Assembly: GCA_963827275.1 (NCBI GenBank)
Contig: CAWHAA010000005.1
Span: 32,001-96,000 of the forward strand
Source: an uncultured Spirochaetota bacterium
GTDB lineage: Bacteria > Spirochaetota > UBA4802 > UBA5550
Length of the DNA: 64,000 nt
Direction of reading: 5' to 3'
The notes under the pieces were generated by a model, which saw nothing but the letters and a program-made list of their open reading frames with translations, was not told where the DNA came from and searched no databases. Positions 6,730 through 24,515 of this stretch are shown one piece after another; the first letter of the stretch is position 1; the number at the start of each line of letters is the position of its first letter. Made by a program: the position numbers and the translations under genes.

Positions 6730-6957
6730 ATGATAAAAAGAATGGTGCAACATGGAAATAGCTCTGCTCTGATAATTGATAAACCCATAATGGAGCTATT
6801 AAATATTGGCCCTGAAACGCCGCTGGAGATCGCTACCGATGGCCAAAATATTATAATTTCACCGGTGCATGACTCCACAAGAATGGACCGGCTGGAAAAG
6901 GCATTGGGAAAGATCAATAAAAAACATAACTCTACCTTAAGAAAATTGGCCAAATGA
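6730..6957 (+). CDS. AbrB/MazE-type antitoxin
   Basis: MIKRMVQHGNSSALIIDKPIMELLNIG; RBS GAGGT; overlaps the doc start (ATGA). Confidence 0.85.
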   Translation: MIKRMVQHGNSSALIIDKPIMELLNIGPETPLEIATDGQNIIISPVHDSTRMDRLEKALGKINKKHNSTLRKLAK

Positions 6958-7349
6958 CACAAAGACCAATTGAATTTATAACCCTGGCAGAAGTTATTGA
7001 AATACATAAAGATCAAACAAGACTCTATGGCGGCCCCGAAGGCATCAGGGATGTTAATCTGCTAACTTCAGCGTTAGCCCTGCCCAAATCTACATTCGAT
7101 GGGGAATACCTGCATAAAAATATATTTGAAATGGCGGCAGCATATGCCTGTCACCTGTGCCAGAACCATCCGTTCATTGACGGGAATAAGCGGGTGGCCC
7201 TGGTGACTGCCCTGGTGTTTTTAGAATTTAATGGCATTGAAATCGATGATCCAAAGGGGCTCTTATATAATGCCATGATGAATATTTCGGAAGGTAAAGC
7301 CGGGAAAAAACAAATAGAAGATATCTTCCGCAAATTGTCAAACAACTGA
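6954..7349 (+). CDS. doc: Doc/Fic-family toxin (death-on-curing)
   Basis: Fic/Doc motif HPFIDGNKR; GIRDVNLLTSAL. Confidence 0.9.
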   Translation: MTQRPIEFITLAEVIEIHKDQTRLYGGPEGIRDVNLLTSALALPKSTFDGEYLHKNIFEMAAAYACHLCQNHPFIDGNKRVALVTALVFLEFNGIEIDDPKGLLYNAMMNISEGKAGKKQIEDIFRKLSNN

Positions 7350-7541: not shown

Positions 7542-8663
7542 TCACAACGGGCTCCGGATGCCCTTAAGCTGCGGATCATAGACCTTTGTATATATCGAAG
7601 TCGTGGTTATGTTCTTATGGCCGAGCAGCGCCTGTATGTGCCGAAGCGATATGCCGTTCTCGAGCAGGTGCGTGGCAAATGTATGCCGGAGGTCATGCGG
7701 CGACGCCTTTTTATTGATGCCGGCCTCCCTGAGCGCCCTCTCCAGCACCTTCTGCACTGTCCTTCCGGAAAGGGCATGGTGCCTTCCCTGCCTGTCCGTG
7801 CCGGACGAAAGGAATATGAACTCGTCACCACGCTTCCCATCCATAAACCGTCTCAGGTCATCGACAATCTTATCGGAAAAAATGGTGATGCGGTCTTTTT
7901 TCCCCTTCCCCTCCTTCACGTGAATCGACAGGCGCTCACAATCGACGTCCCGCACCCTCAGGCTGAGCAACTCGGAGAGCCTGAGCCCGGACGAGTAAAT
8001 AAGCGCGATCATTGTCCGGTGCTTCAGGTTTTTTATGCTGTCCAATATTCTCGCAATCTCGCCCCGGGTAAACACCACCGGAAGGTGCTTCGAATTCCGC
8101 ACTCCTTCAACAAACGAGAGGTCGATTGTCATGTTCAACATGTTATTAAAATAATACGCGAGCGCGAACCTGTACACTCGTACCGTCGATGCGGATGCTT
8201 CCCTGTCATTATTCAGATAAAGAAAAAACGCGCGGAAATCTGCATGATCCATATCGTCAATGTGTTTATTTTTTTTTGCCATGCTCCAGGCATGGATCAT
8301 TCGCACCGCGCTTAAATAAATTTTTATGGTTTTCCGCGAATATCGTTTCAACTTGAGCGTTTCTTCAAACTCTGTATACTGCCGCGGCAGTGACATCGGT
8401 TGCGCCACACTATTCCCGGACGCAGACACAACGGCCTTATCATTATCCTCATTTGGAAACCATGTTTCGATCTCTTTAAAAGCATTACGATATACACCGA
8501 GCGTTTTTTGAAAATAATCGCGCACCAGCAGAAAATCCCCGTAGCTAATTCTACTCCTGTTTCTTTCAAAAAACTCCATAATATTTTGGTTAGATATAAA
8601 CATTGCCTTTTTCCATGAATATTTCTCCAGCAACATCCCCAATATTCCATTTTCCATTCGCAT
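7542..8663 (-). CDS. Integron-like site-specific tyrosine recombinase lacking the canonical IntI insertion (start could lie up to 8744)
   Basis: N-terminal SAM-like domain (LKRYSRKTIKIY); full catalytic set in GLRLSE, GKGKKDR, HDLRHTFATHLLE, LLGH and IYT; divergent from the cassette array. Confidence 0.9.
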   Translation of the reverse strand: MRMENGILGMLLEKYSWKKAMFISNQNIMEFFERNRSRISYGDFLLVRDYFQKTLGVYRNAFKEIETWFPNEDNDKAVVSASGNSVAQPMSLPRQYTEFEETLKLKRYSRKTIKIYLSAVRMIHAWSMAKKNKHIDDMDHADFRAFFLYLNNDREASASTVRVYRFALAYYFNNMLNMTIDLSFVEGVRNSKHLPVVFTRGEIARILDSIKNLKHRTMIALIYSSGLRLSELLSLRVRDVDCERLSIHVKEGKGKKDRITIFSDKIVDDLRRFMDGKRGDEFIFLSSGTDRQGRHHALSGRTVQKVLERALREAGINKKASPHDLRHTFATHLLENGISLRHIQALLGHKNITTTSIYTKVYDPQLKGIRSPL

Positions 8664-8765
8664 CACCCCCCACATGTTTTCAACTACCATATCAGACCAT
8701 GATAATAAACGAATGGGAGGTTCGTTTAATAAAACATTATTCAATAAATTATGAATTTTTTCTTA

Positions 8766-8794
8766 TTGACTTTCGGCTCGCCTAACAGTAGCCT
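8766..8794 (+). promoter_or_regulatory. Candidate Pc-like promoter reading into the array
   Basis: TTGACT-17 bp-TAGCCT, about 30 bp upstream of the first cassette. Confidence 0.55.
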
Positions 8795-8833
8795 TAAAAA
8801 ATCATTAAGAAATTCGGACAATTTTAGTTAAAC
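8795..8833 (+). other. attI-like site, crossover G/TTAAAC at 8827/8828
   Basis: The repeated cassette sequence begins exactly at TTAAAC with no attC upstream; context AATTCGGACAATTTTAG/TTAAAC. Confidence 0.75.
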
Positions 8834-9300
8834 GCCATTTCGAGCGGCGGCCGCGGTTTTTTTGTTATAAATAAAAGAAAAAAATAGGGTTGGCTTTTCT
8901 TTCGATCATATAATAATTAAGGCAATAATCTTTTCGTTCGGTTGCAGCTTAACATTACGCGGCCGCCTCTGGGCTCGCAGGTCTCTCAGTATCGTTTTAT
9001 TGGGTCTTTCTGTTGATTCATAGATATGGGATAACCGACTGACGATATTGGTATGCAACTACTGTCGGTTGCAATACATCGCATAAAGCTTTAACTGGCA
9101 GGTCCTGCGATCCCAGTCGAAACGGCGCTTAACAAAGCATGGGGCGCTGCGCGCGGCCACGAAAATTTAGACGCTGTGGCCGCGCTTGGCCTCGCGCCTT
9201 TCCGCCAGCGGCGGTACTGATTGGCGGATGTTCTAACGCACCGCCACTGGCGGGGCGCTCGGCACACCGCCCTGCGGGCGGCGTCGCCCATGCTTGGACG
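8828..9300 (+). repeat. ORF-less structured cassette, copy 1 (variant A)
   Basis: Near-identical to the units at 9301, 10838, 11310, 15024 and 19074. Confidence 0.9.
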
Positions 9301-9306
9301 TTAAAC
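9127..9306 (+). repeat. attC-like site 1 (180 bp)
   Basis: GCTTAAC-A-AAGCATGGG...CCCATGCTT-GGAC-GTTAAAC. Confidence 0.85.
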
Positions 9307-9772
9307 GCCATTTCGAGCGGCGGCCGCGGTTTTTTTGTTATGAATAAAAGAAAAAAGAGGGTTGGCTTTTCTTTCGATCATATAATAATTAAGGCAATAG
9401 TCTTTTCGTTCGGTTGTAGCTTAACATTACGCGGCCGCCTCTGGGCTCGCAGGTCTCTCAGTATCGTTTTATTGGGTCTTTCTGTTGATTCATAGATATG
9501 GGATAACCGACTGACAATATTGGTGTGCAACTATTGTCGGTTGCACTACATCGCATAAAGCCTTAACAGACAGGTCCTGCGATCCCAGTCGAAACGGCGT
9601 TTAACAAAGCATGGGGCGCTGCGCGCGGCCACGAAAATTTAGACGCTGTGGCCGCGCTTGGCCTCGCGCCTTTCCGCCAGCGGCGGTGCTGATTGGCGGA
9701 TGTTCTAACGCACCGCCACTGGCGGGGCGCTCGGCACACCGCCCTTCGGGCGGCGTCGGCCATGCTTGGACG
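9301..9772 (+). repeat. ORF-less structured cassette, copy 2 (variant B)
   Basis: Direct repeat of 8828-9300 with diagnostic substitutions. Confidence 0.9.
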
Positions 9773-9778
9773 TTAAGC
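9599..9778 (+). repeat. attC-like site 2 (180 bp)
   Basis: GTTTAAC...GTTAAGC. Confidence 0.85.
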
Positions 9779-9891
9779 GCAATACAGCGCTGGCTTTGGG
9801 TTGGCTTTATGGTTGGTCCGGCCTCCTGCCGGCCTTTAATTATGAATTTCATTTTTAAAATATTCTTTTTCATTATTATAGGTTTTTATAT

Positions 9892-10605
9892 ATGAAAAGA
9901 TTAATTACTATTCTATCAATAACTTTCACTTTAATTTATTGTGAAAAATCTTATTCTAATTATTATCTGGGTCCTTATATATCTGTAGCTGTAGGTCAAA
10001 TGGCTCATACACAATCTTCAATTCGAGAAGTTTATGATAATTATATTTTTGGCGGAGGTGGAATCTTCCAAACATCGATTTATCGACGAGGTTTATATAA
10101 TTATAGATTAAATTTTTGTTTCGAAAAGATTTATATACCACATACGACCAAACTTGGAACTGATTTTAGAAATACAATTCGAGGAAATTTAATTAATACA
10201 ATTGCTTATTCAATTTATAAAAAAAGGAATTATAATTTATGGATCGGGCCGCAAATCGGTCTTCATATTTTATGGGGCGACAATTATCTAAGTGATAATA
10301 AATATAATAAATTGAATACGATCCTCATTTCATCAATAATAATGAATCCTGAACTACCACTAATCATTTTACTATATTCTTCGAATAATTATGTGAAATT
10401 TACTGATTTTATTTTTAGTTTTGCTCCGGAAATTGGCATTGATATAAATGCAACAGACTTTTTAATTATATCATTGGAAAGTGGATTGAGAGTAGGTATT
10501 CATTTGCCAACAAATAAAATATCTAGCTCTGTTACATTGTATAGATTTGAAGGATTTTTTAATCTTTCATTTTTATTTAGAATTAACAAAGAAGAAAATA
10601 CATAA
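9892..10605 (+). CDS. Cassette-encoded hypothetical exported protein, possibly an outer-membrane beta-barrel
   Basis: Signal-peptide-like N-terminus; alternating aromatic/hydrophobic strands; single ORF in cassette 9773-10837. Confidence 0.65.
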   Translation: MKRLITILSITFTLIYCEKSYSNYYLGPYISVAVGQMAHTQSSIREVYDNYIFGGGGIFQTSIYRRGLYNYRLNFCFEKIYIPHTTKLGTDFRNTIRGNLINTIAYSIYKKRNYNLWIGPQIGLHILWGDNYLSDNKYNKLNTILISSIIMNPELPLIILLYSSNNYVKFTDFIFSFAPEIGIDINATDFLIISLESGLRVGIHLPTNKISSSVTLYRFEGFFNLSFLFRINKEENT

Positions 10606-10663
10606 TTTTATTATGCCGCCGCCGTCCTGACGGCGGCAACTTGAACTGGGAGCGCTGTACTGC

Positions 10664-10843
10664 GCTTAACAAAGCATGGGACGCTGCGCGCGGCCACGAA
10701 AATTTAGACGCTGTGGCCGCGCTTGGCCTCGCGCCTTTCCGCCAGCGGCGGTGCCGATTGGCGGATGTTCTAACGCACCGCCACTGGCGGGGCGCTCGGC
10801 ACACCGCCCTTCGGGCGGCGTCGCCCATGCTTGAACGTTAAAC
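10664..10843 (+). repeat. attC-like site 3 (180 bp)
   Basis: GCTTAAC...GTTAAAC. Confidence 0.85.
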
Positions 10844-11309
10844 GCCATTTCGAGCGGCGGCCGCGGTTTTTTTGTTATAAATAAAAGAAAAAAGAGGGTT
10901 GGCTTTTCTTTCGATCATATAATAATTAAGGCAATAGTCTTTTCGTTCGGTTGCAGCTTAACATTACGCGGCCGCCTCTGGGCTCGCAGGTCTCTCAGTA
11001 TCGTTTTATTGGGTCTTTCTGTTGATTCATAGATATGGGATAACCGACTGACGATATTGGTATGCAACTACTGTCGGTTGCAATACATCGCATAAAGCTT
11101 TAACTGGCAGGTCCTGCGATCCCAGTCGAAACGGCGCTTAACAAAGCATGGGGCGCTGCGCGCGGCCACGAAAATTTAGACGCTGTGGCCGCGCTTGGCC
11201 TCGCGCCTTTCCGCCAGCGGCGGTACTGATTGGCGGATGTTCTAACGCACCGCCACTGGCGGGGCGCTCGGCACACCGCCCTTCGGGCGGCGTCGCCCAT
11301 GCTTGGACG
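10838..11309 (+). repeat. ORF-less structured cassette, copy 3 (variant A); its attC-like site spans 11136-11315
   Basis: Direct repeat of 8828-9300. Confidence 0.9.
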
Positions 11310-11781
11310 TTAAACGCCATTTCGAGCGGCGGCCGCGGTTTTTTTGTTATGAATAAAAGAAAAAAGAGGGTTGGCTTTTCTTTCGATCATATAATAATTA
11401 AGGCAATAGTCTTTTCGTTCGGTTGTAGCTTAACATTACGCGGCCGCCTCTGGGCTCGCAGGTCTCTCAGTATCGTTTTATTAAGTCTTTCTGTTGATTC
11501 ATAGATATGGGATAACCGACTGACAATATTGGTGTGCAACTATTGTCGGTTGCACTACATCGCATAAAGCCTTAACAGACAGGTCCTGCGATCCCAGTCG
11601 AAACGGCGTTTAACAAAGCATGGGGCGCTGCGCGCGGCCACGAATATTTAGACGCTGTGGCCGCGCTTGGCCTCGCGCCTTTCCGCCAGTGGCGGTACTG
11701 ATTGGCGGATGTTCTAACGCACCGCCACTGGCGGGGCGCTCGGCACACCGCCCTTCGGGCGGCGTCGCCCATGCTTGGACG
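11310..11781 (+). repeat. ORF-less structured cassette, copy 4 (variant B); its attC-like site spans 11608-11787
   Basis: Direct repeat of 9301-9772. Confidence 0.9.
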
Positions 11782-12491
11782 TTAAGCGCAATACAGCGGC
11801 TTTATTTTTTTGCTTTATTCTGGGGCCGGCCTCCTGCCGGACTATTCTTAAAGAAAATGCTTTTTTATTAATGTCCTGGAAGTCTATATCCACCTTTTCC
11901 ACTCAATTCTTGTAAGAGTGTAGAGATATTTTTTTATTATTAAAGAAATACTAAATAAAATATTCTGAAAAATAGCTCAATCTGTTCTCTTTTAGCTAAG
12001 ACGCAAGAGTAGTCTTTTTGATTTATTTTTTTATGTTTTTCTTGACCAGTATTCTCATGTGCATATATATAATTCTGTATTAAAATACTTTTTAAATATT
12101 AATACAAAAGAAAATGTTTGGACATTTGTTCGCCGTGAATTTATTGTACTGAAACGTAAGAGCATACTTTTTTAATTTATTATTTTCTTGGCTTATTCTT
12201 AACCGTAATAGTTATCTATTTTTTACATACTTCAGTATAAATATTATTTTTTTGCTGTAAGTGTATTTGCCGCCGCCGTCCTGACGGCGGCAACTTGAAC
12301 TGATAGCGCTGTACTGCGCTTAACAAAGCATGGGGCGCTGCGCGCGGCCACGAAAATTTAGACGCTGTGGCCGCGCTTGGCCTCGCGCCTTTCCGCCAGT
12401 GGCGGTGCCGATTGGCGGATGTTCTATCGCACCGCCGCTGGCGGGGCGCTCGGCACACCGCCCTTCGGGCGGCGTCGCCCATGCTTGGACG
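11782..12491 (+). other. Second type of ORF-less cassette (AT-rich core); its attC-like site spans 12318-12497
   Basis: No credible ORF; ends are shared with cassette 9773-10837. Confidence 0.8.
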
Positions 12492-12524
12492 TTAGGCGCA
12501 ATTTGGTTGATATTTAATAATATT

Positions 12525-13034
12525 ATGACAAATTTATTATCCTTAAAAGAAATAGAAAGCGAAGTAAATAATCTTGCAAGATTGATAAATGCACCAAAAG
12601 ATTATTTGCCAACATTTGGCTATACAAATGATTTTGCACAACCTCATATTGAGATAAATTATAATCAGTATCACTATGTAATTGTCGAGCGTGGCCAAGA
12701 ATTTGAAAGAAAATCAACGGAAAATATTCATGAACTTTTATATTGGATATTTGAATCAATAACATTTAATATGGCTATTGATTATGAATTTAAAAATAGA
12801 ATTGAAGATCTTGATTCTAGACGTATTGCTTTTAAAAAACAAGAAGAATTATTAAATCTACTTAATCCAGATTGGAAGAATACATTAGAAAATAAACATA
12901 AATTAATATTAGAAAAACATCCTTTTGATGACTTATCTGGTTTAAGGGCAACATATTGTAGGGAGTTGAGAGAAAAAGGATATTGTGAAGATGATATAAC
13001 TAAAAAGGCTTATGAAAAATATCCTTTGCCTTGA
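12525..13034 (+). CDS. Imm63-like immunity protein (cassette)
   Basis: PHIE...YHYVIVERGQEFERKST...ELLYWIF...DSRRIAF pattern, recognised from memory. Confidence 0.7.
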   Translation: MTNLLSLKEIESEVNNLARLINAPKDYLPTFGYTNDFAQPHIEINYNQYHYVIVERGQEFERKSTENIHELLYWIFESITFNMAIDYEFKNRIEDLDSRRIAFKKQEELLNLLNPDWKNTLENKHKLILEKHPFDDLSGLRATYCRELREKGYCEDDITKKAYEKYPLP

Positions 13035-13046
13035 CAACCAAACTGC

Positions 13047-13220
13047 GCATAACAAAGCATAGCCGCTCCGCTCCTCGCTCGCTAAGGCTCGCTGCGGTGC
13101 TCGGCCTCGCGCTTATCCCGCCAGCTGCGGCGGTGATTTGGGGAGGGTTTTGAGCCGCCTTGCTGGCGGGGCGCTCGGCAACCTGGCTTCGCCAGGTTCG
13201 GCTATGCTGAGACGTTAGGC
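13047..13220 (+). repeat. attC-like site (174 bp)
   Basis: GCATAAC-AA-AGCATAGCCG...CGGCTATGCT-GAGAC-GTTAGGC. Confidence 0.85.
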
Positions 13221-13298
13221 GCCATTTCTGGCTGGCTTTTTTATTTCCTCGCCATCCATGGCTCGGAATTATTATCATATTTTATCAGGAGGACATTT

Positions 13299-13883
13299 AT
13301 GGGTCTAATTGTTCATTCATTAGAAAACATACCTCAATCTTCAAATAGGGATTATATAATATATTTACTCGATTATGGCTGGAGTGAACCAATTGGAAAA
13401 GCTCTTAATGATAATTTTGATCATATGGCTAATATTGCAGCAAATAATCGAGCTGTAATTATTAAGGGAACTAGATTAGGTGATTTTGCAAACGAAGTTT
13501 TTTCTTGGCATCATATAAATAATATTGATGCCGATGACATTCTTCCTGCATTATTAATTACCAATAAACATCCCGTATATTTTAAAGATTATGAGTTTGG
13601 ATATCGCCAAAAAAAGGGATTATATAGAGACACCAAAGATGATGATTTAAAATTAATTCTAATACCTTTTAAAAAGTTTTGTAAAACAACAACTGAGGTA
13701 ATTTCTTTAATCGAAAAAGTATTTTCTGATATAATTAACAAAAAGGATTTATCAAATTTTTCTGTAGCAAAAGAAATGAAAAAAGGAATATGTTCTGCAA
13801 TTGTAGACGCTATAATACTTGAGCCTAATTTTTCCGGAATTGGTTTTAGTTTTAATAAATTCAGGAGTTATTTAAAAACTTAA
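13299..13883 (+). CDS. Cassette-encoded hypothetical protein
   Basis: 194-aa ORF with a strong RBS (AGGAGG); family not recognised. Confidence 0.8.
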   Translation: MGLIVHSLENIPQSSNRDYIIYLLDYGWSEPIGKALNDNFDHMANIAANNRAVIIKGTRLGDFANEVFSWHHINNIDADDILPALLITNKHPVYFKDYEFGYRQKKGLYRDTKDDDLKLILIPFKKFCKTTTEVISLIEKVFSDIINKKDLSNFSVAKEMKKGICSAIVDAIILEPNFSGIGFSFNKFRSYLKT

Positions 13884-13958
13884 AATTAACTTATTTGTAA
13901 TTACTCAAAAGTACATCCATGTACTTTTGAACTTTTTCGTTTTAATGCCAGAAACGGC

Positions 13959-14206
13959 GCCTAACAAAGCATAACCGCTCCGCTCCTCGCCCACTTCGCG
14001 GGCTGCGGTGCTCGGCCTCGCGCCTGGCCGCCTCCGTCGGTGCCGATTTGGGGATGATCTAAAGCACCGACTCCGGCGGCGCGCTCGGCTCATTTTTCGG
14101 CGCTTCTTAGTTTCAAATAAATTAGTACTTGCAAAATTGCTTACAACAGGATAGATAACTTTTCGCGGCCAGGCCTCAAAACGACGGTTATGCTTGGACG
14201 TTAAGC
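13959..14206 (+). repeat. attC-like site (248 bp)
   Basis: GCCTAAC-A-AAGCATAACCG...CGGTTATGCTT-GGAC-GTTAAGC. Confidence 0.8.
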
Positions 14207-14241
14207 GACATTGCCATTTTTTTATGTATTTGGAGTTATGA

Positions 14242-14863
14242 ATGATTCCATCAGAAAGACACCCAATTGTTTCATTCTTCCTTGATGCTTATTTCATTGA
14301 AACATTTTTAAATCTTATAAAAAAATTATATCTGCCGAACGAGTATTTTAATATATCTATAAGAATAATATTTAATGATAATATTCATATTTTACCATGC
14401 TTACTATTATAAAAAAACAAAATTCCGCACTATTGGCGAACTTATTACTGGAACCTATATAGATAGTGATGGTAATAAATATTTTCTTAATCCATTTTAT
14501 TTAAATCGTTTTATTTTATGGGTTCCAATGTTTCTCACCTTTGTTGGTTTAAAATCTGTAAATATAATTCAAATAAATGACTTAAAATTAATTTCATCAT
14601 TAATATTTATTGGCATTTTATTATTAACATATTTTTCATACATCATGTTAAATAGAGGATATGTTATCGGTTTAATTTTATTATTAATAATTTATGCTTC
14701 TTTAATTTTTAATGTAATATACAATAAAGGATTTATTATAAAATTATTTGATTGGGAATTAATAATAGAATTCACATTATTATTGTTATTTATAACAATA
14801 ATAATAGCATATTGGATTATAAGAATGAATAAATTTCAAAATATAAATGGCAACGTCGCTTAA
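14242..14863 (+). CDS. Cassette membrane protein, RDD-like N-terminus; apparent frameshift near 14373
   Basis: MIPSERHPIVSFFLDAYF from 14242 after RBS GGAG, continuing in another frame as YYYKKTKFRTIGELITG plus four TM segments; stop codon lies within the attC R'' box. Confidence 0.6.
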
Positions 14864-15029
14864 CACGGCGTTCACGCTCCGCTCCTCGGGGCTTCGCCCC
14901 TGCGGTGCTCGGCTTCGCGCCTCGCCCGCCGGTTTCGGCGGTTTTCGGAGGAGTGTTCTGAGCCGTTTCACCGGCGGGGGCGCTCAGCAACCTGGCTTCG
15001 CCAGGTTCGTAAACGCCGGAACGTTAAAC
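14858..15029 (+). repeat. attC-like site (172 bp)
   Basis: GCTTAAC-A-CGGCGTTCACG...CGTAAACGCCG-GAAC-GTTAAAC. Confidence 0.85.
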
Positions 15030-15495
15030 GCCATTTCGAGCGGCGGCCGCGGTTTTTTTGTTATAAATAAAAGAAAAAAGAGGGTTGGCTTTTCTTTCGA
15101 TCATATAATAATTAAGGCAATAGTCTTTTCGTTCGGTTGCAGCTTAACATTACGCGGCCGCCTCTGGGCTCGCAGGTCTCTCAGTATCGTTTTTTTGGGT
15201 CTTTCTGTTGATTCATAGATATGGGATAACCGACTGACGATATTGGTATGCAACTACTGTCGGTTGCAATACATCGCATAAAGCTTTAACTGGCAGGTCC
15301 TGCGATCCCAGTCGAAACGGCGCTTAACAAAGCATGGGGCGCTGCGCGCGGCCACGAAAATTTAGACGCTGTGGCCGCGCTTGGCCTCGCGCCTTTCCGC
15401 CAGCGGCGGTACTGATTGGCGGATGTTCTAACGCACCGCCACTGGCGGGGCGCTCGGCACACCGCCCTGCGGGCGGCGTCGCCCATGCTTGGACG
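15024..15495 (+). repeat. ORF-less structured cassette, copy 5 (variant A); its attC-like site spans 15322-15501
   Basis: Direct repeat of 8828-9300. Confidence 0.9.
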
Positions 15496-15547
15496 TTAGG
15501 CGAAAAAACGCCAAAATATAAGTCGAGGTAAAAAGGAAATTTATATT

Positions 15548-17989
15548 ATGGAAATTTATGCTATACTATTAAAATTATTTGATTTTCTTAATAAAATGTC
15601 TAATATTTCCTTTACAACATTTATCGCATTCATAGGAGCTATTACTGGTTCATTAACTTTTTATTATACTTTTTTAAAAAGATTTAATCCAAAATGTATA
15701 ATTAGTGGTGATATTATTTTTCATTGCAACAAAGGTTCTTTAAAAAATAATGATGCCTATTTAAAAGAAATAGAGTTAAATATTACATTCAGCAATGAAT
15801 CTAATAAGTATGGGTTGATTGAAGACCTACTAGTTCGTATATATTCAACGGATGGGATCACAAGAGAAACTGATCCTACCCCACAATTCGACCAGTTTCA
15901 AGTTTAGTTTTCTCGATCACTAACATATCATTATATTGTTTTGGCGTCATCCCTTTTAATCTCTTTTGAGGTCTTTCCTCGTTATATTCTCTCCACCATT
16001 CATGAATAATCTCTCTGGCTGTACTCAGTTTTTTAAAATAATGAGCACTGAGACATTCATTCCGAAATGTTCCATTAAAACTTTCTATGTGGCAATTATC
16101 TGATGGCTTGCCGGGCCTTGTGAAAATTATTTTAATCCCCTTTTCATAGCACCAACGGTCGAGTTCCTGGCTTCTAAATTCAGGACCATTGTCACATTGT
16201 ATAAATTCTGGATACCCAAAGGATTCACATGCTCTTTCAAGTAGTTCAGAAACATCCTTACCCGTTATTGAAAATCCAGTATGAATAAGTGGCGAATGAT
16301 TCGTTACAGGGTCAATCGCTGTCAGTATTTTGAGATTCTTTTTAAAGCCCACCGAGTCATGAATGAAATCTAAAGCCCATATGACGCCAGGTTCATTCGG
16401 CAATTCAACGGGTGATCGTTCTAATGAAGCTATCTTTTTCCGACGTTTCCGCGCTCGTAATTGCAGCCCATGCTCTTTATATATCCTTTCTGTACGCTTA
16501 TGATTAATCAGTATCCCTTTTTGCCTCAGCTTGAGCTGTATCATTCCGCAGCCATATTTTGAATTTTTTGAAAGGATCGAATCTATCTCTCCAATGATTC
16601 GTGCGTCATCATTTGGCTGCGGACTATATAAAAATGTAGAACGAGCCATGCAAGAAACCTTGCATGATCGTCGTATCGAAAACCCGAAGCTACTCATCAG
16701 ATAGCTTACTGCCTCTCTCTTCACTCCGGGTCGCAGAACTTTTTTATGATCTCCTTCTGTGCCATGTTATCCAGGGATAAATCGGCAACCAGTTTCTTTA
16801 ATCGTGTATTTTCATCTTCAAGTAGTCGCAATCGAACAATTTCCTGAGAGCTCATATCTCCATATTTGCGCTTCCAGATATAAAAGGAGTTCTCACTAAT
16901 GCCGTGTTCTCGGGCGATATCCTTTACCTTTTTTCCCGCCTTATGCTCACCAAGGATCCTGACAATCTGCTCTTCTGAGAATCGTTTTTTCATTTTAACC
17001 TCATTAGTCTTGATTATTTATCGGTTAAAACTAAACTATCTCGTGGTACAAATTTAAGGGGTGGGATCAAAACCACTCCTTATTTTATAAGTCTTTTCAA
17101 GGATCATGATAATCCTGATAAATTGCCATTTTACCCTATCGTATTAATCCCTAAAAGTTTTCGTTCATCTACATTTATCTTTATCGATCGAATTGCCGCA
17201 TCAGAAAAAATAATAAATATTGATCGTGATTATAATCTTCAATTATTCATTAAATATAAAAAAGAAAATAATTGGGTTTTAATTGATGATATAACTCTAT
17301 ATTGTAAATTAAAAGATAATACCAATCAATTATTTGATTTAATATTTATGTCTATAAATCAACAGATTATTCGCGATAAGGCTAAAGACTATATTGGGAA
17401 AATTCCAAAACCTTTTTACAGAGGAATAATACATCAATGGTTTAAAATTATATTTGAGGAAGTTAAGTTTTTCATTATAAGGACAATTTATAAATTGTTG
17501 CATTTCATACAATGTATTTACCATCTTATTCTCTCTGGAATTAATTGGCTTGTATCTTTTATTGTAATAAATAACCTATTAATATTTTTATCTTCAAAGA
17601 CTAAGGAAATTAAAACAAGTAGCCAAATTGGTCCCGATGAGCAAACACTGGATTATATAAAAAAACTACACAAAGTAATTTTAAAATTAGTTACTAAAAT
17701 TAATAATAGATCAGAAAGCAAAATTGATATTCAATACAAAGGCAAAGATATTTTATTAAGTCGCAATAATTTTGAAATTATTATTTATGCACCTGGCGTT
17801 AACCATATAATGGCACATGATAAAGAAAGTCATGAATATAAGCTTTTTCTTGAATTTGCGATGGTTGTAAATAGGATTAATCATAAATATTGGACATATG
17901 ATGATAAATTTATATCGATTACGAGAATAGCATTAAAAATTATTGATAGTTTTAGCTTAATGACTCAATATAAAATAATTCCTGAATAA
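15548..17989 (+). pseudogene. Cassette hypothetical membrane protein interrupted by IS3
   Basis: Removing 15871-17073 rejoins ...TDGITRET-TPYFISLFKDHDNPDKLPFYP... in frame. Confidence 0.8.
15871..17069 (-). mobile_element. IS3-family element, copy 1 (1199 bp; orfA 16721-16993, orfB 15876-16724)
   Basis: IRs TGATCCTACCCC/GGGGTGGGATCA; AAAC target duplication; orfA MKKRFSEEQI; orfB DDE motifs WALDF, DNGPEF, IESFNG; A6G slippery site at the orfA end. Confidence 0.95.
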
Positions 17990-18002
17990 TTGACGTTTCT
18001 TC

Positions 18003-18125
18003 GCCTAACAAAGCATAACCGCTGCGCGCGGCCACAAGAAATGAAGCTGTGGCCGTGCTCGGCCTGCGGCACACCGCGCCAAGGGAGGAAGCTGGCGCGG
18101 CGTCGGTTATGCTTGGACGTTAAGC
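18003..18125 (+). repeat. attC-like site (123 bp)
   Basis: GCCTAAC-A-AAGCATAACCG...CGGTTATGCTT-GGAC-GTTAAGC. Confidence 0.85.
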
Positions 18126-18189
18126 GCCATGGAAAAAGAGCTTTTTGCCCGCCATCCGTGGCGGGCTTTTTAAGAAATATATTTTTTTC

Positions 18190-18218
18190 TTGACATGTAG
18201 TCATTATATGACTACTTT
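18190..18218 (+). promoter_or_regulatory. TA cassette promoter with palindromic operator
   Basis: TTGACA-17 bp-TACTTT overlapped by GTAGTCAT-tat-ATGACTAC. Confidence 0.75.
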
Positions 18219-18223
18219 GATTT

Positions 18224-18487
18224 ATGTTCTCAGTTAAAATATCAAAAAAGGCTATTAAGGGCATTCATAAAATGCCCATTAAAATTCAAGAAAGAATGAA
18301 TGTCCTTCTTAAAGATCTACGTGCAAAAGGACCCATGCGATATGAATGGCCAAATTTTAGTAAATTAGATGAAAATCTGTATCATTGTCATTTAGCTCAC
18401 AAATGGATCGCATGCTGGAAATATGAAAAACATACAATCATTATAGAGGTTTATTATGCAGGCTCACGTGAAAACGCCCCATATTAA
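18224..18487 (+). CDS. RelE-like toxin (toxin-first TA cassette 1)
   Basis: 87-aa basic protein ending IIIEVYYAGSRENAPY, upstream of an XRE-HTH gene. Confidence 0.7.
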   Translation: MFSVKISKKAIKGIHKMPIKIQERMNVLLKDLRAKGPMRYEWPNFSKLDENLYHCHLAHKWIACWKYEKHTIIIEVYYAGSRENAPY

Positions 18488-18824
18488 AATTAATATTAAA
18501 GGTGAAATTCATCCCAAAGTTCTTTCTGTTTTAAAAGAAGTCTATGGGAAAAAAGTTAAACTTATCAAGGAAAATGATGAAGAATTAGTTGATGCCTTTG
18601 AAACTGAATGGTTTAAAAATATTGATGCCACCATGTCTCCCGGCAAAAACATGAGGATATATCGAGAAATTCATAAAATGACCCAAGAAGAACTAGGTAA
18701 CAAATTAGGTGGCATTTCTAAACAAAATATTTCTCATATGGAACGAGGTATTAGACCTATTAGTAAAAAAACTGCTAAATCATTGGCTTCAATTTTTAAA
18801 GTTCCGGCAGACCGTTTTATTTGA
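18456..18824 (+). CDS. XRE-family HTH antitoxin (HigA-like)
   Basis: MTQEELGNKLGGISKQNISHMERGIRPIS. Confidence 0.8.
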   Translation: MQAHVKTPHIKINIKGEIHPKVLSVLKEVYGKKVKLIKENDEELVDAFETEWFKNIDATMSPGKNMRIYREIHKMTQEELGNKLGGISKQNISHMERGIRPISKKTAKSLASIFKVPADRFI

Positions 18825-18900
18825 CTATTTTTAAGATATTGCCCTGCCCTCGCCCGTCCTGGACTCGGGCAGTAAATACTTATACTATTTTTTCCACGGC

Positions 18901-19079
18901 GCTTAACACGGCGTTCACGCTCCGCTCCTCGGCGGCTTATTGGCGCCTGCGGTGCTCGGCTTCGCGCCTTGCCCGCCGGTTTCGGCGGTTTTCAGAGGAG
19001 TGTTTTGAGCCGCCTCACCGGCGGGCGCGCTCAGCAACCTGGCCTGCGGCCAGGTTCGTAAACGCCGGAGACGTTAAAC
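18901..19079 (+). repeat. attC-like site (179 bp)
   Basis: GCTTAAC-A-CGGCGTTCACG...CGTAAACGCCG-GAGAC-GTTAAAC. Confidence 0.85.
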
Positions 19080-20482
19080 GCCATTTCGAGCGGCGGCCGC
19101 GGTTTTTTTGTTATGAATAAAAGAAAATAAATAAGGTTGGCTTTTCTTTCGATCATATAATAATTAAGGTGTAATAGACTCGATTTAATCTGACACTCTT
19201 CCGATAAATGGAGCAGAAAATGCTCTGAATAATTATACGGAGGAGTACATGACAACAGAACAGAAAGTCATCAGGAACAAAATGGGGTTATTAAACCTCG
19301 CAGAGCAGATTGGGAATGTCAAAAAAGCATGTCACATTATGGGATATTCCCGAGACAGTTACTACCGGCTAAAGGAACTTTATGATACTGGTGGTGAAGA
19401 AGCGTTAAAAGAAATCAGCAGAAAAAAAGCTAATATAAAGAATCGTGTTGATCCAAGTGTTGAAACTGCAGTTAACAGCATTGCAATTGAGTATCCCGCA
19501 TTTGGACAGGTTCGGGCTTCTAATGAACTGAGAAAACAGGGGATATTTGTCTCACCTACCGGAGTAAGAAGCATATGGCTCCGTAATGATCTTGAAACCA
19601 TGAAGAAGCGGCTCAAGGCACTTGAGGCCAAGGTCGCTCAAGATGGAATCATTCTCACGGAATCACAGCTTGCCGCATTAGAGAAAGCCAAAGAGGAAAA
19701 GGAAGCTCATGGTGAGATTGTATCTGAACATCCTGGTTATCTGGGTTCGCAGGACACAATGTATGTAGGAACGGTCAAAGGTGTTGGCCGGATATACCAG
19801 CAGACTTTTATAGACACGTATTGTAAGGTGGCTTTTGCAAAGTTATACAATATGAAAACACCAATTACCTCTGCCGACATATTGAACGACAGGGTTATAC
19901 CGTTTTATGAAAACAGCAGCATTAAGCTGATCCGAGTATTGACGGATCGTGGTACCGAATATTGCGGGAAAATGGAAAGTCATGACTATGAACTGTTTCT
20001 TTCGATTGAGGATATTGAGCACACAAAGACAAAGACGCGGCATCCTCAAACAAATGGAATATGCGAAAGATTTCATCGAACCATTCAAGATGAATTTTAT
20101 CGCATAGCATTTAGAAAGAAAATTTACAACACTCTTGATGAACTTCAGAAGGATCTTGACATATGGATTGTTCAATATAATAATGAGAGACCGCATAGTG
20201 GAAAATATTGTTATGGCAAAACACCGATAGATACGTTCAAGGATTCGTTAGTGCTTGCAAAAGAAAAACTGCTAAACTTTAACTGACAGGCAGTTTGGAA
20301 GTGATTGGTGAGTGTCAGATGAAGTTCAGAGTTTTACAATTAAGGCAATAATCTTTTCGTTCGGTTGCAGCTTAACATTACGCGGCCGCCTCTGGGCTCG
20401 CAGGTCTCTCAGTATCGTTTTATTGGGTCTTTCTGTTGATTCATAGATATGGGATAACCGACTGACGATATTGGTATGCAAC
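19074..20482 (+). repeat. ORF-less structured cassette, copy 6, interrupted by IS481 and truncated by IS3
   Basis: Repeat sequence is present at 19074-19169 and 20339-20482. Confidence 0.85.
19170..20338 (+). mobile_element. IS481-family element (transposase 19249-20286)
   Basis: TGT...ACA ends with imperfect IRs sharing ATCTGACACT; ATTAAGG duplicated on both sides; TDRGTEY and TNGICERFHRT motifs. Confidence 0.93.
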
Positions 20483-21681
20483 TGATCCTACCCCACAATT
20501 CGACCAGTTTCAAGTTTAGTTTTCTCGATCACTAACATATCATTATATTGTTTTGGCGTCATCCCTTTTAATCTCTTTTGAGGTCTTTCCTCGTTATATT
20601 CTCTCCACCATTCATGAATAATCTCTCTGGCTGTACTCAGTTTTTTAAAATAATGAGCACTGAGACATTCATTCCGAAATGTTCCATTAAAACTTTCTAT
20701 GTGGCAATTATCTGATGGCTTGCCGGGCCTTGTGAAAATTATTTTAATCCCCTTTTCATAGCACCAACGGTCGAGTTCCTGGCTTCTAAATTCAGGACCA
20801 TTGTCACATTGTATAAATTCTGGATACCCAAAGGATTCACATGCTCTTTCAAGTAGTTCAGAAACATCCTTACCCGTTATTGAAAATCCAGTATGAATAA
20901 GTGGCGAATGATTCGTTACAGGGTCAATCGCTGTCAGTATTTTGAGATTCTTTTTAAAGCCCACCGAGTCATGAATGAAATCTAAAGCCCATATGACGCC
21001 AGGTTCATTCGGCAATTCAACGGGTGATCGTTCTAATGAAGCTATCTTTTTCCGACGTTTCCGCGCTCGTAATTGCAGCCCATGCTCTTTATATATCCTT
21101 TCTGTACGCTTATGATTAATCAGTATCCCTTTTTGCCTCAGCTTGAGCTGTATCATTCCGCAGCCATATTTTGAATTTTTTGAAAGGATCGAATCTATCT
21201 CTCCAATGATTCGTGCGTCATCATTTGGCTGCGGACTATATAAAAATGTAGAACGAGCCATGCAAGAAACCTTGCATGATCGTCGTATCGAAAACCCGAA
21301 GCTACTCATCAGATAGCTTACTGCCTCTCTCTTCACTCCGGGTCGCAGAACTTTTTTATGATCTCCTTCTGTGCCATGTTATCCAGGGATAAATCGGCAA
21401 CCAGTTTCTTTAATCGTGTATTTTCATCTTCAAGTAGTCGCAATCGAACAATTTCCTGAGAGCTCATATCTCCATATTTGCGCTTCCAGATATAAAAGGA
21501 GTTCTCACTAATGCCGTGTTCTCGGGCGATATCCTTTACCTTTTTTCCCGCCTTATGCTCACCAAGGATCCTGACAATCTGCTCTTCTGAGAATCGTTTT
21601 TTCATTTTAACCTCATTAGTCTTGATTATTTATCGGTTAAAACTAAACTATCTCGTGGTACAAATTTAAGGGGTGGGATCA
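20483..21681 (-). mobile_element. IS3-family element, copy 2 (encodes proteins identical to copy 1)
   Basis: Same IRs and identical orfA/orfB translations; flanks come from two different cassettes. Confidence 0.95.
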
Positions 21682-21689
21682 AAACCCAT

Positions 21690-22142
21690 ATGAAAATACT
21701 TATAAAACTCCTGCCATTTATATTAGGTGGTGCCTTAGTTATTCAATCTTCACTAAATAAATCAATTGCCCAATCAAAAGGCTTAAGCACAGCATTAGTC
21801 ATAAATGGATTAATTGTTGTATTCTGTTCATTAATAATATTTATTTTATCATATTTTTTCCCACATCACTTCTCGGAAATTATTACTTATAACAACAATA
21901 ATTTGATATTTAAATGGTGGTATATAATTCCTGGTTTTTTAGGATTTTGTGCATTATTAATTCTTCCAATTGGAATTATGAAAATTGGTGCCTTACCAAT
22001 TTTTCTTGGAGTAATTGCTGGGCAAATAATCGTAAGTATTATATATGATTTTTATTTTGAAAATATTTCAATTAATTTAATTCGTGTATCAGGAGCCTTA
22101 TTAACTTTTATTGGAGCCTTTTTGGTAGTTTGGAAAAGATGA
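21690..22142 (+). CDS. DMT-superfamily (YdcZ/DUF606-like) small transporter (cassette)
   Basis: Five TM segments; QSSLN, WWYIIPGFLG, GQIIVSIIYD, RVSGALL. Confidence 0.75.
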   Translation: MKILIKLLPFILGGALVIQSSLNKSIAQSKGLSTALVINGLIVVFCSLIIFILSYFFPHHFSEIITYNNNNLIFKWWYIIPGFLGFCALLILPIGIMKIGALPIFLGVIAGQIIVSIIYDFYFENISINLIRVSGALLTFIGAFLVVWKR

Positions 22143-22317
22143 ATAATTATTCAAATCACAAGTAATAACCAACAAATAACTAATAACTTGACAAAATATG
22201 TATTTATTATTATAGAATATATAAATTACATGCAAAATATTATTTTTTTTTACCTTAATGTTGCTTTTCGCCATCCATGGCTCAAAGCAAATATGCCTTA
22301 ATGTGTATGGCCACTTC

Positions 22318-22455
22318 ACCTAACAAAGCATAGCCGCTGCGCGCGGGAATACCGCGCTTGGCCTCCGCGCCAAGATATGAAGACGGCGCTACGGCACATT
22401 TTCACCTCCGCGAGTACGCTCCGGTGAAAACGTCGGCTATGCTTGGACGTTATAC
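22318..22455 (+). repeat. attC-like site (138 bp)
   Basis: ACCTAAC-A-AAGCATAGCCG...CGGCTATGCTT-GGAC-GTTATAC. Confidence 0.85.
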
Positions 22456-22515
22456 GCCATGGCAAACTTTTCGCCTGCCATCCATGGCGGGCGTGGTATT
22501 TCATAATAAAATATG

Positions 22516-22544
22516 TTGACAAGTAACCCTTATTTGGTTACATT
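22516..22544 (+). promoter_or_regulatory. TA cassette promoter with palindromic operator
   Basis: TTGACA-17 bp-TACATT overlapped by GTAACC-cttattt-GGTTAC. Confidence 0.75.
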
Positions 22545-22549
22545 GCATT

Positions 22550-22813
22550 ATGTATAAAGTAGTAATTACAAAAAGCACCCTCAAAGGCATTGAAAAAATG
22601 CCTAAATTTTCACAATTAGCAATGGGGAACTTAGTTGATGATCTTAAGGAGTGTGGCCCTATTCAAAAACACTGGGCTAATTTTAGTAAAATTGGAAAGA
22701 ATAAATTCCATTGCCATTTATCATATAAATGGGTTGCATGCTGGGAATTTTATGAAAATAATATATTAATTGAGGTTTATTATGCAGGTTCACGTGAAAA
22801 CGCCCCGTATTAA
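22550..22813 (+). CDS. RelE-like toxin (TA cassette 2)
   Basis: Paralogue of 18224-18487 with the same EVYYAGSRENAPY end. Confidence 0.7.
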   Translation: MYKVVITKSTLKGIEKMPKFSQLAMGNLVDDLKECGPIQKHWANFSKIGKNKFHCHLSYKWVACWEFYENNILIEVYYAGSRENAPY

Positions 22814-23147: not shown

Positions 23148-23222
23148 TTTTTTATTACCTTTGGCCCGCCTCCGCACGTCCTGTGCTTCGGCGGTAGAGC
23201 TTTTTTACTTCATTGCCACGGC

Positions 23223-23528: not shown

Positions 23529-23599
23529 GCAATTGCCCCATTTTATATAGAATAGAAAAATATAGTATAAATATTACAAAAAAATTGTGCATATAAATT

Positions 23600-24355: not shown

Positions 24356-24474
24356 CAAAGCACACCCGCTGCGCGCGGCCACAAGAAATGAAGCTGTGGC
24401 CGTGCTCGGCCTGCGGCACACCGCGCCTAAGGGAGGAAGACGGGCCCGGCGGCGGCTATGCTGGAACGTTGTTC
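24350..24474 (+). repeat. attC-like site (125 bp, partly degenerate)
   Basis: ACATAAC...GGAAC-GTTGTTC; core similar to the 18003-18125 site. Confidence 0.75.
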
Positions 24475-24515
24475 GAAACCCGGCGGTTTTGAAATTTGAG
24501 AGGAACTCTTTCATA

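Follow-up and report, generated by a model that had tools for sequence, protein, structure and literature searches.

Chromosomal integrons of Vibrio carry paralogous non-coding cassettes, with six copies in Vibrio sp. DAT722 and 45 in V. vulnificus CMCP6, which Boucher et al. proposed to be selfish elements or to have a promoter or RNA function (Boucher et al. 2006, PMC1382264). The attC sites of integrons are substrates in the form of a folded bottom strand (Bouvier et al. 2009, PMC2727003). Here we describe a gene-less unit housed in a sedentary cassette array on the chromosome of an uncultured spirochaete. Multi-copy non-coding cassettes are already known from Vibrio; what is new is the conserved junction of the present unit. 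The window, which is the whole stretch of DNA analysed (64,000 nucleotides), contains the following features.

7542..8744, minus strand: tyrosine recombinase of the array, integron-integrase-like (Pfam Phage_integrase, 2.9e-43)
8827..8833, plus strand: attI core site GTTAAAC, read from the sequence; the same heptamer lies at every copy boundary
8828..9300, plus strand: copy 1, variant A, 473 bp, with cargo at 8828-9126 and attC from R'' (9127-9133) to G9300
9127..9306, plus strand: attC of copy 1, about 180 bp, 70-80% G+C, with R'' GCTTAAC (9127-9133) and R' GTTAAAC (9300-9306)
9301..9772, plus strand: copy 2, variant B, 472 bp
10838..11309, plus strand: copy 3, variant A, 472 bp
11310..11781, plus strand: copy 4, variant B, 472 bp
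15024..15495, plus strand: copy 5, variant A, 472 bp
19074..19169, plus strand: 5' part of copy 6, a further variant within the AT-rich loop
19170..20338, plus strand: IS inside copy 6, with an rve-type transposase (19249-20286) and a duplicated ATTAAGG on both sides
20339..20483, plus strand: middle part of copy 6, which stops within the arm-2 domain at an IS3-family element
20483..21681, minus strand: IS3-family element truncating copy 6, ends placed by eye

The recombinase, the translation of which probably begins further downstream than the listed TTG, has orthologues with 54-83% identity in 13 of 15 same-genus genomes, and is colinear with XerA (4a8e) in the alignment. In a structure-based alignment, its residues 297-315 span residues 177-233 of the VchIntIA chain (2a3v), and it is therefore short of about 38 residues, at what we take from the VchIntIA structure literature to be the location of the IntI-specific additional domain. 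Its score against the TIGR02249 integron integrase model is 214 bits (cut-off 265), and that against NF040815 is 217 (cut-off 220). Hence, the locus is not a complete integron, which would encode an IntI with the specific additional domain. Because the recombinase lacks this insertion and falls below the TIGR02249 cut-off, the array appears, as judged from the sequence, to function in an integron-like manner, with a recombinase that is not a canonical IntI.

Repeat finding, genome-wide BLAST, and alignment, which also delimit copies 2 to 5, reveal six copies of the unit, five intact and one broken. The preliminary description had recognized these six copies in two variants; further variants are represented by copy 6 and by a contig from a different sample. 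Copy 1 is one base longer than the other four intact copies (473 versus 472 bp) owing to one extra A. In each unit, a cargo of about 300 bases is followed by a GC-rich attC (about 180 bases), and the boundaries lie exactly at the G/TT crossovers: the first bases of every copy are TTAAAC, preceded by a G, and its last base is the G of GTTAAAC or GTTAAGC. The unit thus has the organization of an integron gene cassette, bounded by GTTRRRY core sites at G/TT and terminated by an attC that is an imperfect palindrome (R'' RYYYAAC ... R' GTTRRRY). The attI crossover lies between G8827 and T8828, and copies 1 and 2 are the first two cassettes directly after it, as had been noticed before. In G+C content, the cassette cargo (14-36%) differs from the frames (60-84%) and the flanks of the genome region (about 60%).

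Copies 1, 3, and 5 belong to variant A, and copies 2 and 4 to variant B. The numbers of differing alignment columns are 2-5 between A copies, 6 between B copies, and 12-19 between A and B; ten differences are fixed between the variants. The A-B pair is present twice in the array. The unit has been multiplied as whole cassettes, the A-B pair included. All 14 BLAST matches of the unit in the whole genome lie within the array on the window's contig, and the clamp pattern described below matches the genome five times, every time in the copies. The IS within copy 6 has a 7-bp target duplication, and the missing remainder of this copy is absent from the whole genome, as searched by BLAST with the unit. 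The first 300 bases of the truncating IS3-family element (20480-20779), the portion compared, are identical to a copy at about 15868. Parts of the cargo were found in four of four public runs from four studies, one of which may be the source sample, and one of the runs provided the contig with the further variant. Hence, the copies are not an artefact confined to the assembly of this genome.

No conserved open reading frame or codon pattern was found in the unit by the Pfam and ORF comparisons, and the ORFs overlapping it have no Pfam match. The only ORF of at least 40 codons shared by A and B is on the minus strand with a TTG start, and its frame meets a stop directly after the conserved clamp in a related genome (G103, below). 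The comparison of the copies and relatives likewise agrees with the earlier view that the cargo has no conserved ORF, and reveals no conserved translated peptide.

What, then, does the unit contain? The cargo comprises two stem-closed domains enclosed by an outer stem.

8834..8843, plus strand: 5' half of the outer stem, GCCATTTCGA, pairing with TCGAAACGGC (9117-9126) with one A.C mismatch
8846..8967, plus strand: arm 1 domain, a 102-nt AT-rich loop closed by a 10-bp clamp of G and C only (8846-8855 with 8958-8967)
8890..8917, plus strand: sigma-70-like site TTGGCT-16 nt-AATAAT, matching 9 of 12 consensus positions, in every copy and facing the next cassette
8969..9116, plus strand: arm 2 domain, 122 nt closed by a 13-bp stem (8969-8981 with 9104-9116) with one C.T mismatch

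The loop of arm 1 contains an inner hairpin (TTGGCTT / AAGGCAA) and the promoter-like site. The stem of arm 2 forms 12 of 13 pairs, and encloses two overlapping and mutually exclusive hairpins: AACCGAC (9033-9039) with GTCGGTT (9064-9070), and GTATGCAAC (9051-9059) with GTTGCAATAC (9068-9077). In the latter, one A/B difference pair preserves nine pairs by a bulge shift. The stem coordinates noted earlier are all correct (TTTCGA 8838-8843 with TCGAAA 9117-9122, and both arms as listed), and so is the observation that the A/B differences spare both arms, where none of the ten fixed differences lies. The minimum-energy fold on either strand is a three-way junction. The RNA folds have z-scores of -5.3 (plus) and -6.8 (minus), with 0 of 100 shuffles equally stable, and the bottom-strand DNA fold has a z-score of -6.2. 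Two other array cassettes folded in the same way reach -5.1 and -3.1, because the closing stem occurs in every cassette. Among the five intact copies there are no compensatory pairs, and several A/B differences disrupt predicted inner pairs.

The outer stem is an array-wide extension of the attC R-box helix. In 12 of 12 cassettes here, the 10-13 bases after R' pair with the bases before the cassette's own R'', and in the array of a related genome (G016) the extension matches at least 9 of 13 positions in 16 of 26 rows, 14 of which have a single A/G difference at position 11. The outer stem is therefore not diagnostic of this cassette: the three-way junction of the preliminary description stands as the minimum-energy fold on both strands, while its outer stem proves to be generic. 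Read on the bottom strand, the one conserved A.C mismatch turns into a G.T wobble. Three hairpins lie inside the attC of copy 1. A profile built from six array copies of attC, five of them from the unit's own copies, recovers its six source sites and about ten weaker co-oriented sites.

The family of the unit extends to at least four species of two genera, including G016, G103, and G008 besides the present genome (G000 in these comparisons). In the three species with intact copies (G000, G016, and G103), three stems converge on one junction, and thus the homologues preserve the stems, as the preliminary description required, with compensatory changes. The arm 1 clamp is invariant in G016 and G008 and retains 9 of 10 bp in G103, while arm 2 and the outer stem change in sequence between species and retain pairing. 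Compared with G000, the outer stem of G016 and G103 has A-T in place of a C-G pair and is without one T-A pair, which is lost from both halves of the stem. The duplex energies of cognate arm-2 halves are -15.8, -18.7, and -23.8 kcal/mol, as compared to at best -7.5 to -10.8 kcal/mol for non-cognate pairings of G000 with G016 or G103. Within the close pair G016/G103, cognate and non-cognate energies are similar (-16.8 to -19.5 kcal/mol), and the covariation signal therefore rests on few lineages. RNAalifold on G016 and G103 yields 76 pairs, six of them changed on both sides, and these two genomes have in common an inner stem of 19-20 bp in which a C-G pair is changed to T-A. Compensatory change is thus seen in arm 2, the outer stem, and this inner stem, in the three intact lineages only, with arm 1 invariant. 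Outside the stems, homology to G103 amounts to 61% over 219 columns and 79% over the final 34. The interior of arm 2, only partly alignable, measures 122 nt here as compared to about 290 nt in G016 and G103. In G008, the same 5' module precedes different, longer content, including the start of a protein gene, and the copy is rearranged with a partial attC at its end.

From these data, we infer that the three-stem fold is selected at the nucleic-acid level, and that its action is most likely in cis, exerted on the single bottom strand that the recombinase uses. Our best explanation, which we hold tentatively, is a largely selfish non-coding cassette under fold selection, multiplied by the recombinase or by attC-attC recombination. 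Once excised, the bottom-strand unit would form a compact dumbbell with nearly all bases paired, its two ends being attC and the cargo junction. Such a short, well-folded unit may be frequently excised and re-inserted at attI; alternatively, it may be duplicated through recombination between its near-identical attC sites. By either route, frequent re-insertion or attC-attC duplication, the unit would persist chiefly as a passenger that is selfish or nearly neutral. In addition, transcription from a promoter in the AT-rich loop may enter the next cassette.

Several observations weigh against this explanation. The role of the fold in recombination is deduced from sequence, and Watson-Crick compensatory changes do not discriminate DNA from RNA. 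The absence of compensatory pairs among the five intact copies, the inner pairs broken by A/B differences, the similar cognate and non-cognate energies of the G016/G103 pair with the few lineages that carry the covariation signal, and the low z-scores of other array cassettes all count against fold selection. The unvarying arm 1 suits a protein-binding site as well as a stem. Moreover, unequal homologous recombination between attC sites that are 96-100% identical would produce the same boundaries with no special property of the cargo.

Could the copies instead be kept as promoters? It is possible, though rather doubtful, that a sense-strand promoter in the arm 1 loop drives the cassette behind each copy, and that copies are retained along the array because transcription is re-started far from the platform promoter. 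All six copies have an identical TTGGCT-16-AATAAT site, in contrast to the variable AT-rich tract directly upstream, and AT-rich UP-like tracts precede a conserved AGGGTTGC motif in all four species. The promoters reported on many gene-less cassettes favour this reading over ours: in the accounts available, reporter assays detected promoter activity in ORF-less Treponema cassettes (Tansirichaiya et al. 2019, PMC6557892) and in most of 29 gene-less Vibrio cassettes (Blanco et al. 2023, bioRxiv 10.1101/2023.11.21.568050). In addition, a contig from an RNA library crosses the junction from attC to the cassette start, at a depth of 2.7 that may reflect DNA carry-over. However, promoter-like sites are not enriched region-wide (12 found versus 8.3 +/- 2.6 expected), and the best sense-strand sites in G016 and G103 are in another place, spanning the R'-side extension and the clamp, so that no promoter position is conserved. 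The cassette directly behind one copy (11782-12491) has an AT-rich interior with no ORF of 50 codons, and a promoter explains neither the conservation of the GC clamp nor the compensatory changes of arm 2.

A stronger form of our preferred explanation, in which the three-stem junction is itself a self-propagation device, a fully paired single-stranded DNA dumbbell that continues the attC helix and is thereby the preferred substrate of the Xer-like recombinase with its missing integron-specific domain, seems unlikely at present. If true, the unit would be a structurally defined selfish cassette and, together with the array-wide extended attC stems and the GC-rich frames shared around AT-rich cargo, would offer a way into cassette building and choice in a non-canonical integron.

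The structured RNA suggested earlier is decidedly unlikely. Here the unit would be a non-coding RNA gene, either a trans-acting sRNA or a cis-acting leader, with the arm-2 domain as the RNA and the stems as its helices. The stable folds (z about -5 to -7), the compensatory changes between species, the inner stem of G016 and G103 with its C-G to T-A change, the nine pairs retained in hairpin 9051-9077, and a sense-strand terminator-like hairpin within arm 2 of G016 are consistent with it. However, this terminator-like hairpin is absent in G103, and the arm-2 interiors differ in length and are partly alignable. An Rfam search of positions 7000-30000 at E up to 1 gave no relevant match and a single chance match at 25249, the relatives' loci gave no Rfam match, and a covariance model of the arm-2 domain had no match in 100 other genomes. 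Moreover, strand asymmetry is evident solely at the A.C mismatch in the outer stem, and there it points to the bottom strand, the one antisense to the cassettes.

We consider it quite improbable that the unit is a conserved chassis or "empty" cassette, a GC-rich frame whose AT-rich content is exchanged or deleted and here is nearly gone, with the outer stem, arm 1, and the 5' half of arm 2 as the leader, and the 3' half of arm 2, the outer stem, and attC as the trailer. The G+C contrast between cargo and frames and the G008 module ahead of different content fit this scheme, as do cassettes 9773-10837 and 11782-12491, whose cargoes are unrelated but which have in common a 60-nt leader (80%) and a 235-nt trailer plus attC (96%). 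However, gene conversion between adjacent GC-rich ends would likewise make frames similar, and the G008 content may be secondarily joined, because that copy is rearranged with a partial attC. The homology among G000, G016, and G103 reaches far into the interior, and these are therefore diverged copies of one cassette rather than a frame with foreign fillings, which also weakens the earlier idea of a blank template.

Finally, a decayed protein or peptide gene is highly improbable: of its three candidates, a 13-codon ORF (cassette 225-266) keeps its start codon (ATG or GTG) with one synonymous A/B change, and G016 and G103 have eight residues in common (LLFGLQF plus one) with four third-position differences, but that stretch sits in the 5' half of a conserved stem, an indel alters its upstream frame, and its counterpart here is out of frame, while a 51-codon B-only ORF has no start in A and is frameshifted in copy 1, and a 50-codon ORF is on the minus strand.

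How does the unit compare with known systems? Similar to MITEs and REP-type hairpin repeats, it is short, non-coding, and multi-copy with inverted-repeat ends; it is not such an element, as its copies are confined to the array, with recombination core sites rather than target duplications at their boundaries. It resembles the ORF-less cassettes of Tansirichaiya et al. (PMC6557892), which lie in a spirochaete array and also in first position. With the promoter-bearing gene-less cassettes (PMC6557892; bioRxiv 10.1101/2023.11.21.568050), it shares a downstream-facing sigma-70-like site, a candidate here, whose position is not conserved among the relatives; conserved folds or amplification are not reported in the accessible portions of those two accounts. 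The Vibrio non-coding cassettes are likewise ORF-less and multi-copy in one array, with homologues confined to close relatives, and the available text of that description defines no secondary structure for them (PMC1382264). In contrast, the present unit belongs to another phylum with another recombinase, and its three-stem junction is kept across genera with compensatory changes. Its attC shares the imperfect palindrome, the R''/R' core sites, and the G/TT crossover with the attC sites as presented by Bouvier et al. (PMC2727003). The strand asymmetry of the outer stem fits the bottom-strand folding of attC. In canonical attC sites, pairing ends at the R boxes, whereas here it extends 10-13 bases further across the cassette junction, and in the family of the unit the helix runs on through arm 2 while arm 1 branches off to the side.

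The unit, a 472-bp gene-less cassette composed of a cargo of about 300 bases and an attC site of about 180 bases, is present in six copies (c1-c6), as the preliminary description claimed. Repeat finding, whole-genome BLAST of the unit and alignment together recover five intact copies and a broken one, and all 14 of the BLAST matches in the window's genome (11 contigs, 4.13 Mb) lie inside the array that the recombinase gene faces.

7542-8744, minus strand: tyrosine recombinase gene
8828-9300: c1, intact, 473 bp
9301-9772: c2, intact, 472 bp
10838-11309: c3, intact, 472 bp
11310-11781: c4, intact, 472 bp
15024-15495: c5, intact, 472 bp
19074-19169 plus 20339-20483: c6, split and shortened

The cassettes of this array are co-oriented, from the first core site, GTTAAAC at 8827-8833, to the end at about 26.6 kb, and among them are about 16 attC sites, GC-rich and each some 180 bases long. 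The G+C content (window 8800-27000) is 14-36% in the cassette interiors and 60-84% in the attC sites, against about 60% in the window flanks; at about 45-51%, the integrase gene region, too, is AT-rich. A Doc-family toxin gene (6954-7349, plus strand) is located just outside the integrase gene, and one cassette encodes an Imm63 immunity-protein domain (12526-13034, plus strand). Two further cassettes, 9773-10837 and 11782-12491, have unrelated interiors between a common 60-nt leader (80%), containing the hairpin CCGGCCTCCTGCCGG, and a common 235-nt trailer plus attC (96%); in the latter cassette, no ORF reaches 50 codons. The leader hairpin also occurs in a cassette of the related genome G008 (locus L063, minus strand, about 2220-2205).

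The intact copies fall into variant A (c1, c3 and c5) and variant B (c2 and c4). The 10 columns fixed between them include none in arm 1, the 10-bp GC clamp, or arm 2, the 13-bp stem, in agreement with the preliminary description. The A copies differ among themselves in 2-5 columns and the B copies in 6, one column in the c1 comparisons being an artefact of the start coordinate used. An insertion sequence, flanked by a 7-bp target duplication, splits the sixth copy, which is then cut short by an IS3-family element. This element is present twice, at about 15868-17070, where it interrupts an ORF cassette, and at 20483-21681, where it cuts off c6; the two are identical over the 300 bases compared. 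The missing remainder of c6 is absent from the genome, which, together with the paired IS3-family copies, suggests a deletion or an exchange between them.

Could the cargo be an assembly artefact? Twenty public sequencing runs from 13 studies, of wastewater, digesters, bioreactors, manure and sediment, contain 9-41% of the unit's sampled words, and four of them were compared in detail. A DNA contig of run X1 exactly matches 9073-9300. Another, from X2, covers 8923-9231 with nine differences, some in B-like columns and others unique. Run X17, labelled RNA and probably DNA, yields a 140-base fragment that exactly matches 8914-9053 and lies between adapter-like ends; it is no evidence of a transcript. 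Finally, in a metatranscriptome contig of X19, a variant attC adjoins the unit's initial 29 bases. Since parts of the cargo occur in all four runs, one of which may be the source of the assembly, the cargo is not an artefact of a single assembly. These contigs carry no information on strand, transcript ends or expression level, and none extends over 8700-8826, so the attI junction falls outside their coverage.

All of the stem coordinates in the preliminary description are correct in the sequence, and the three-way junction proposed there is the minimum-energy structure on both strands. The fold z-scores of the unit are -5.3 and -6.8 as RNA, and -6.2 as bottom-strand DNA. Other cassettes folded with their own R boxes also score low (-5.1 and -3.1), consistent with the outer stem being a generic extended attC helix. 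In the hairpin at 9051-9077, one A/B pair of changes retains nine pairs through a bulge shift, and the X2 variant, which has just one of the two listed changes, would still pair. There are no compensatory pairs among the copies in this genome, and some A/B differences disrupt predicted inner pairs. The paired fractions of the circular folds are 0.63-0.70 for all, and are uninformative.

To characterize the outer stem (8834-8843 with 9117-9126 in c1), we took, for each cassette, the sequence that begins at the G of the preceding R' and compared it with the reverse-complemented sequence that ends at its own R''. In all 12 cassettes examined, the complementarity spans the 7-base core and 10-13 further bases. 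It is broken once in each of them, at position 11 counted from the G of GTT, where A on the R' side faces C on the R'' side; in the bottom strand, this A.C mismatch turns into a G.T wobble. (Row 1 is one base out of register owing to the coordinate used; its sequence is that of rows 4 and 10.) In the large array of G016, a genome of the same genus, 16 of 26 rows match in at least 9 of 13 extension positions, and in 14 of these 16 well-anchored rows the one mismatch is again that at position 11; a 1-base indel shifts the five copies of one small cassette, and five rows are mis-anchored by the heuristic or have no extension feature. Thus, the TTTCGA/TCGAAA stem that had been assigned to the unit is not peculiar to it, but is the extended attC helix of this lineage, and it is continuous with the R-box helix in the circular cassette. 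Both here (boundaries 8827-19080) and in the G016 array, the attC helices extend 10-13 bases past the R boxes, over the cassette junction.

The recombinase has orthologues (54-83% identity) in 13 of 15 genomes of the same genus, and these adjoin arrays in every genome checked (G001, G008 and G010); the platform is sedentary and vertically inherited. In a collection of genome contigs that may exclude the window's own lineage, the best integrase matches are 42-46% identical and come from unrelated phyla. The recombinase aligns colinearly with XerA. Relative to VchIntIA (structure 2a3v), it is short of about 38 residues within chain positions 177-233, which we take to be the location of the IntI-specific domain. 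It scores under the curated cut-offs of both integron-integrase models. For integron specialists, an integrase without the IntI insertion, combined with attC helices that continue beyond the R boxes with a bottom-strand wobble, could outweigh the cassette itself. The abstract of a 2013 Treponema paper (PMC3607928) names Treponema as the sole spirochaete clade then known to have integrons, and a Spirochaetes attC class was modelled by Ghaly et al. 2021 (PMC8352920).

Next, we consider the relatives. A 607-bp cassette of the same plan was recognised by eye in the G016 array. Pattern searches and BLAST with this cassette as query then add a 640-bp cassette in G103, from a different genus, that is 72% identical to the query, and a rearranged copy in G008 that retains the 5' module alone. 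In this G008 member (L063, minus strand; G008:C2 about 20600-21430), the 5' module is followed by about 600 bases of other sequence, including the first ~43 codons of a gene, and by the 3' portion of an attC, a duplicate of the one upstream; it looks like a rearranged cassette. The unit in the window is 61% identical to that of G103 over its first 214 bases and 79% over its last 34, and the interior of arm 2 measures 122 bases in the former and about 290 in the latter. Both derive from a single cassette and have diverged, with interiors of very different length. In the G016 array (L053+L054; G016:C2:4280000-4319999, minus strand), the attC sites number at least 31, and small multi-copy cassettes form two other families: one of five copies (355-411 bp, two in tandem), which may encode an ORF of about 60 codons on the opposite strand, and one of three copies of about 386 bp.

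Other searches gave no further members. BLAST of the cargo against 60 relatives found only a 27-nt AT-rich match in G018, taken as chance. With the whole unit as query, BLAST of 122 genomes from the order produced matches in 14 besides the window's own, 13 of these 14 matching in the attC part only and G018 showing nothing beyond that same match. A covariance model of the arm-2 domain, run on 100 other genomes with hits accepted up to E = 1, had no match, nor did a distant-mode search of the plasmid collection or a metagenome search with the 24-base arm junction. The clamp pattern matched at least 120 metagenome loci; all of those listed were GC-rich background (loop G+C 0.52 or more), so members of the family beyond the listing may have been missed. 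Clamp matches with GC-rich loops, in G021, G102 and G011, were set aside as chance; the reversed control pattern of the order-wide clamp search matched once each in the window's genome and G094. A 401-genome sample of the phylum, a draw that left G016 outside, yielded no further members.

The preliminary description made the fold depend on its stems being preserved in homologues, and in the intact members they are. The arm 1 clamp is identical in the window's genome, G016 and G008, and 9 of its 10 bp are kept in G103. Its loop retains a T-rich tract and the motif AGGGTTGC, as well as AAGGCAATAA in three species, and these motifs form an inner hairpin. Arm 2 differs in sequence and pairs in each intact member: the cognate duplex energies are -15.8, -18.7 and -23.8 kcal/mol, whereas the non-cognate pairings of the window's arm with those of G016 and G103 reach at most -7.5 to -10.8 kcal/mol. 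Between G016 and G103, cross-pairing almost equals cognate pairing; RNAalifold gives 76 pairs for these two, six with both sides changed, one of which falls in a 19-20-bp inner stem. In the outer stem, a C-G pair of the window's unit becomes A-T in G016 and G103, and one T-A pair is lost on both sides.

What, then, is the unit? Tentatively, we favour a largely selfish cassette that would act in cis, at the DNA level. The sole signal that is asymmetric between the strands points to the recombinogenic bottom strand, the stems prolong the attC helix, the interior can vary freely in length, and neither a promoter position nor a terminator nor an RNA family is conserved. A promoter cassette is a rather unlikely alternative. 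Promoter activity has been shown for many gene-less cassettes, according to two reports (PMC6557892; bioRxiv 10.1101/2023.11.21.568050), and a sigma-70-like site (TTGGCT-16 nt-AATAAT, 8890-8917), oriented downstream, is the same in all copies. However, the region shows no enrichment in such sites (12 found versus 8.3 +/- 2.6 expected), and a crude scan of the window's genome, G016 and G103 revealed no conserved position: the best sense-strand sites of the latter two have the -35 element in the R'-side extension and the -10 element just after the clamp. An RNA gene, as the preliminary description envisaged, is improbable, since no relevant Rfam match at E up to 1 was obtained at 7000-30000 of the window or in the relatives' loci and the terminator is not conserved. 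An intrinsic terminator formed by the clamp and T-run was rejected, as no hairpin is possible before the T-run, and so was a group II intron, retron or bridge-RNA remnant, as neither a reverse transcriptase nor a matching recombinase lies nearby and Rfam gives no match. That the unit is an emptied chassis has a slim chance. A decayed or peptide gene is scarcely credible: ORFs overlapping the unit have no Pfam match, and no conserved translated peptide explains it, as the 51-codon ORF exists in variant B only and G016 and G103 have no ORF in common. A 13-codon ORF is weakly suggestive at best, and a 50-codon minus-strand ORF, rejected as a gene, has a TTG start and runs across both clamps; in G103, the clamp read in its frame is directly followed by a stop.

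The role of gene-less cassettes, and the reason for their multiplication, is a question dating from their description in Vibrio. The present family is a compact and testable case, with a defined fold conserved across genera, natural variants and the cognate recombinase adjacent. If the stems alter the rates of excision or insertion, then the content of a cassette would influence its own mobility; if they instead mark a promoter or an RNA, then the unit would represent a regulatory cassette that is structured and comes from outside the proteobacteria. Boucher et al. (PMC1382264) describe the non-coding cassettes of Vibrio arrays as tending to be paralogous, and propose that they are selfish elements or have a promoter or RNA function. 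Cassettes that are both multi-copy and non-coding are known from Vibrio, and the novelty here is the defined three-stem fold retained across genera.
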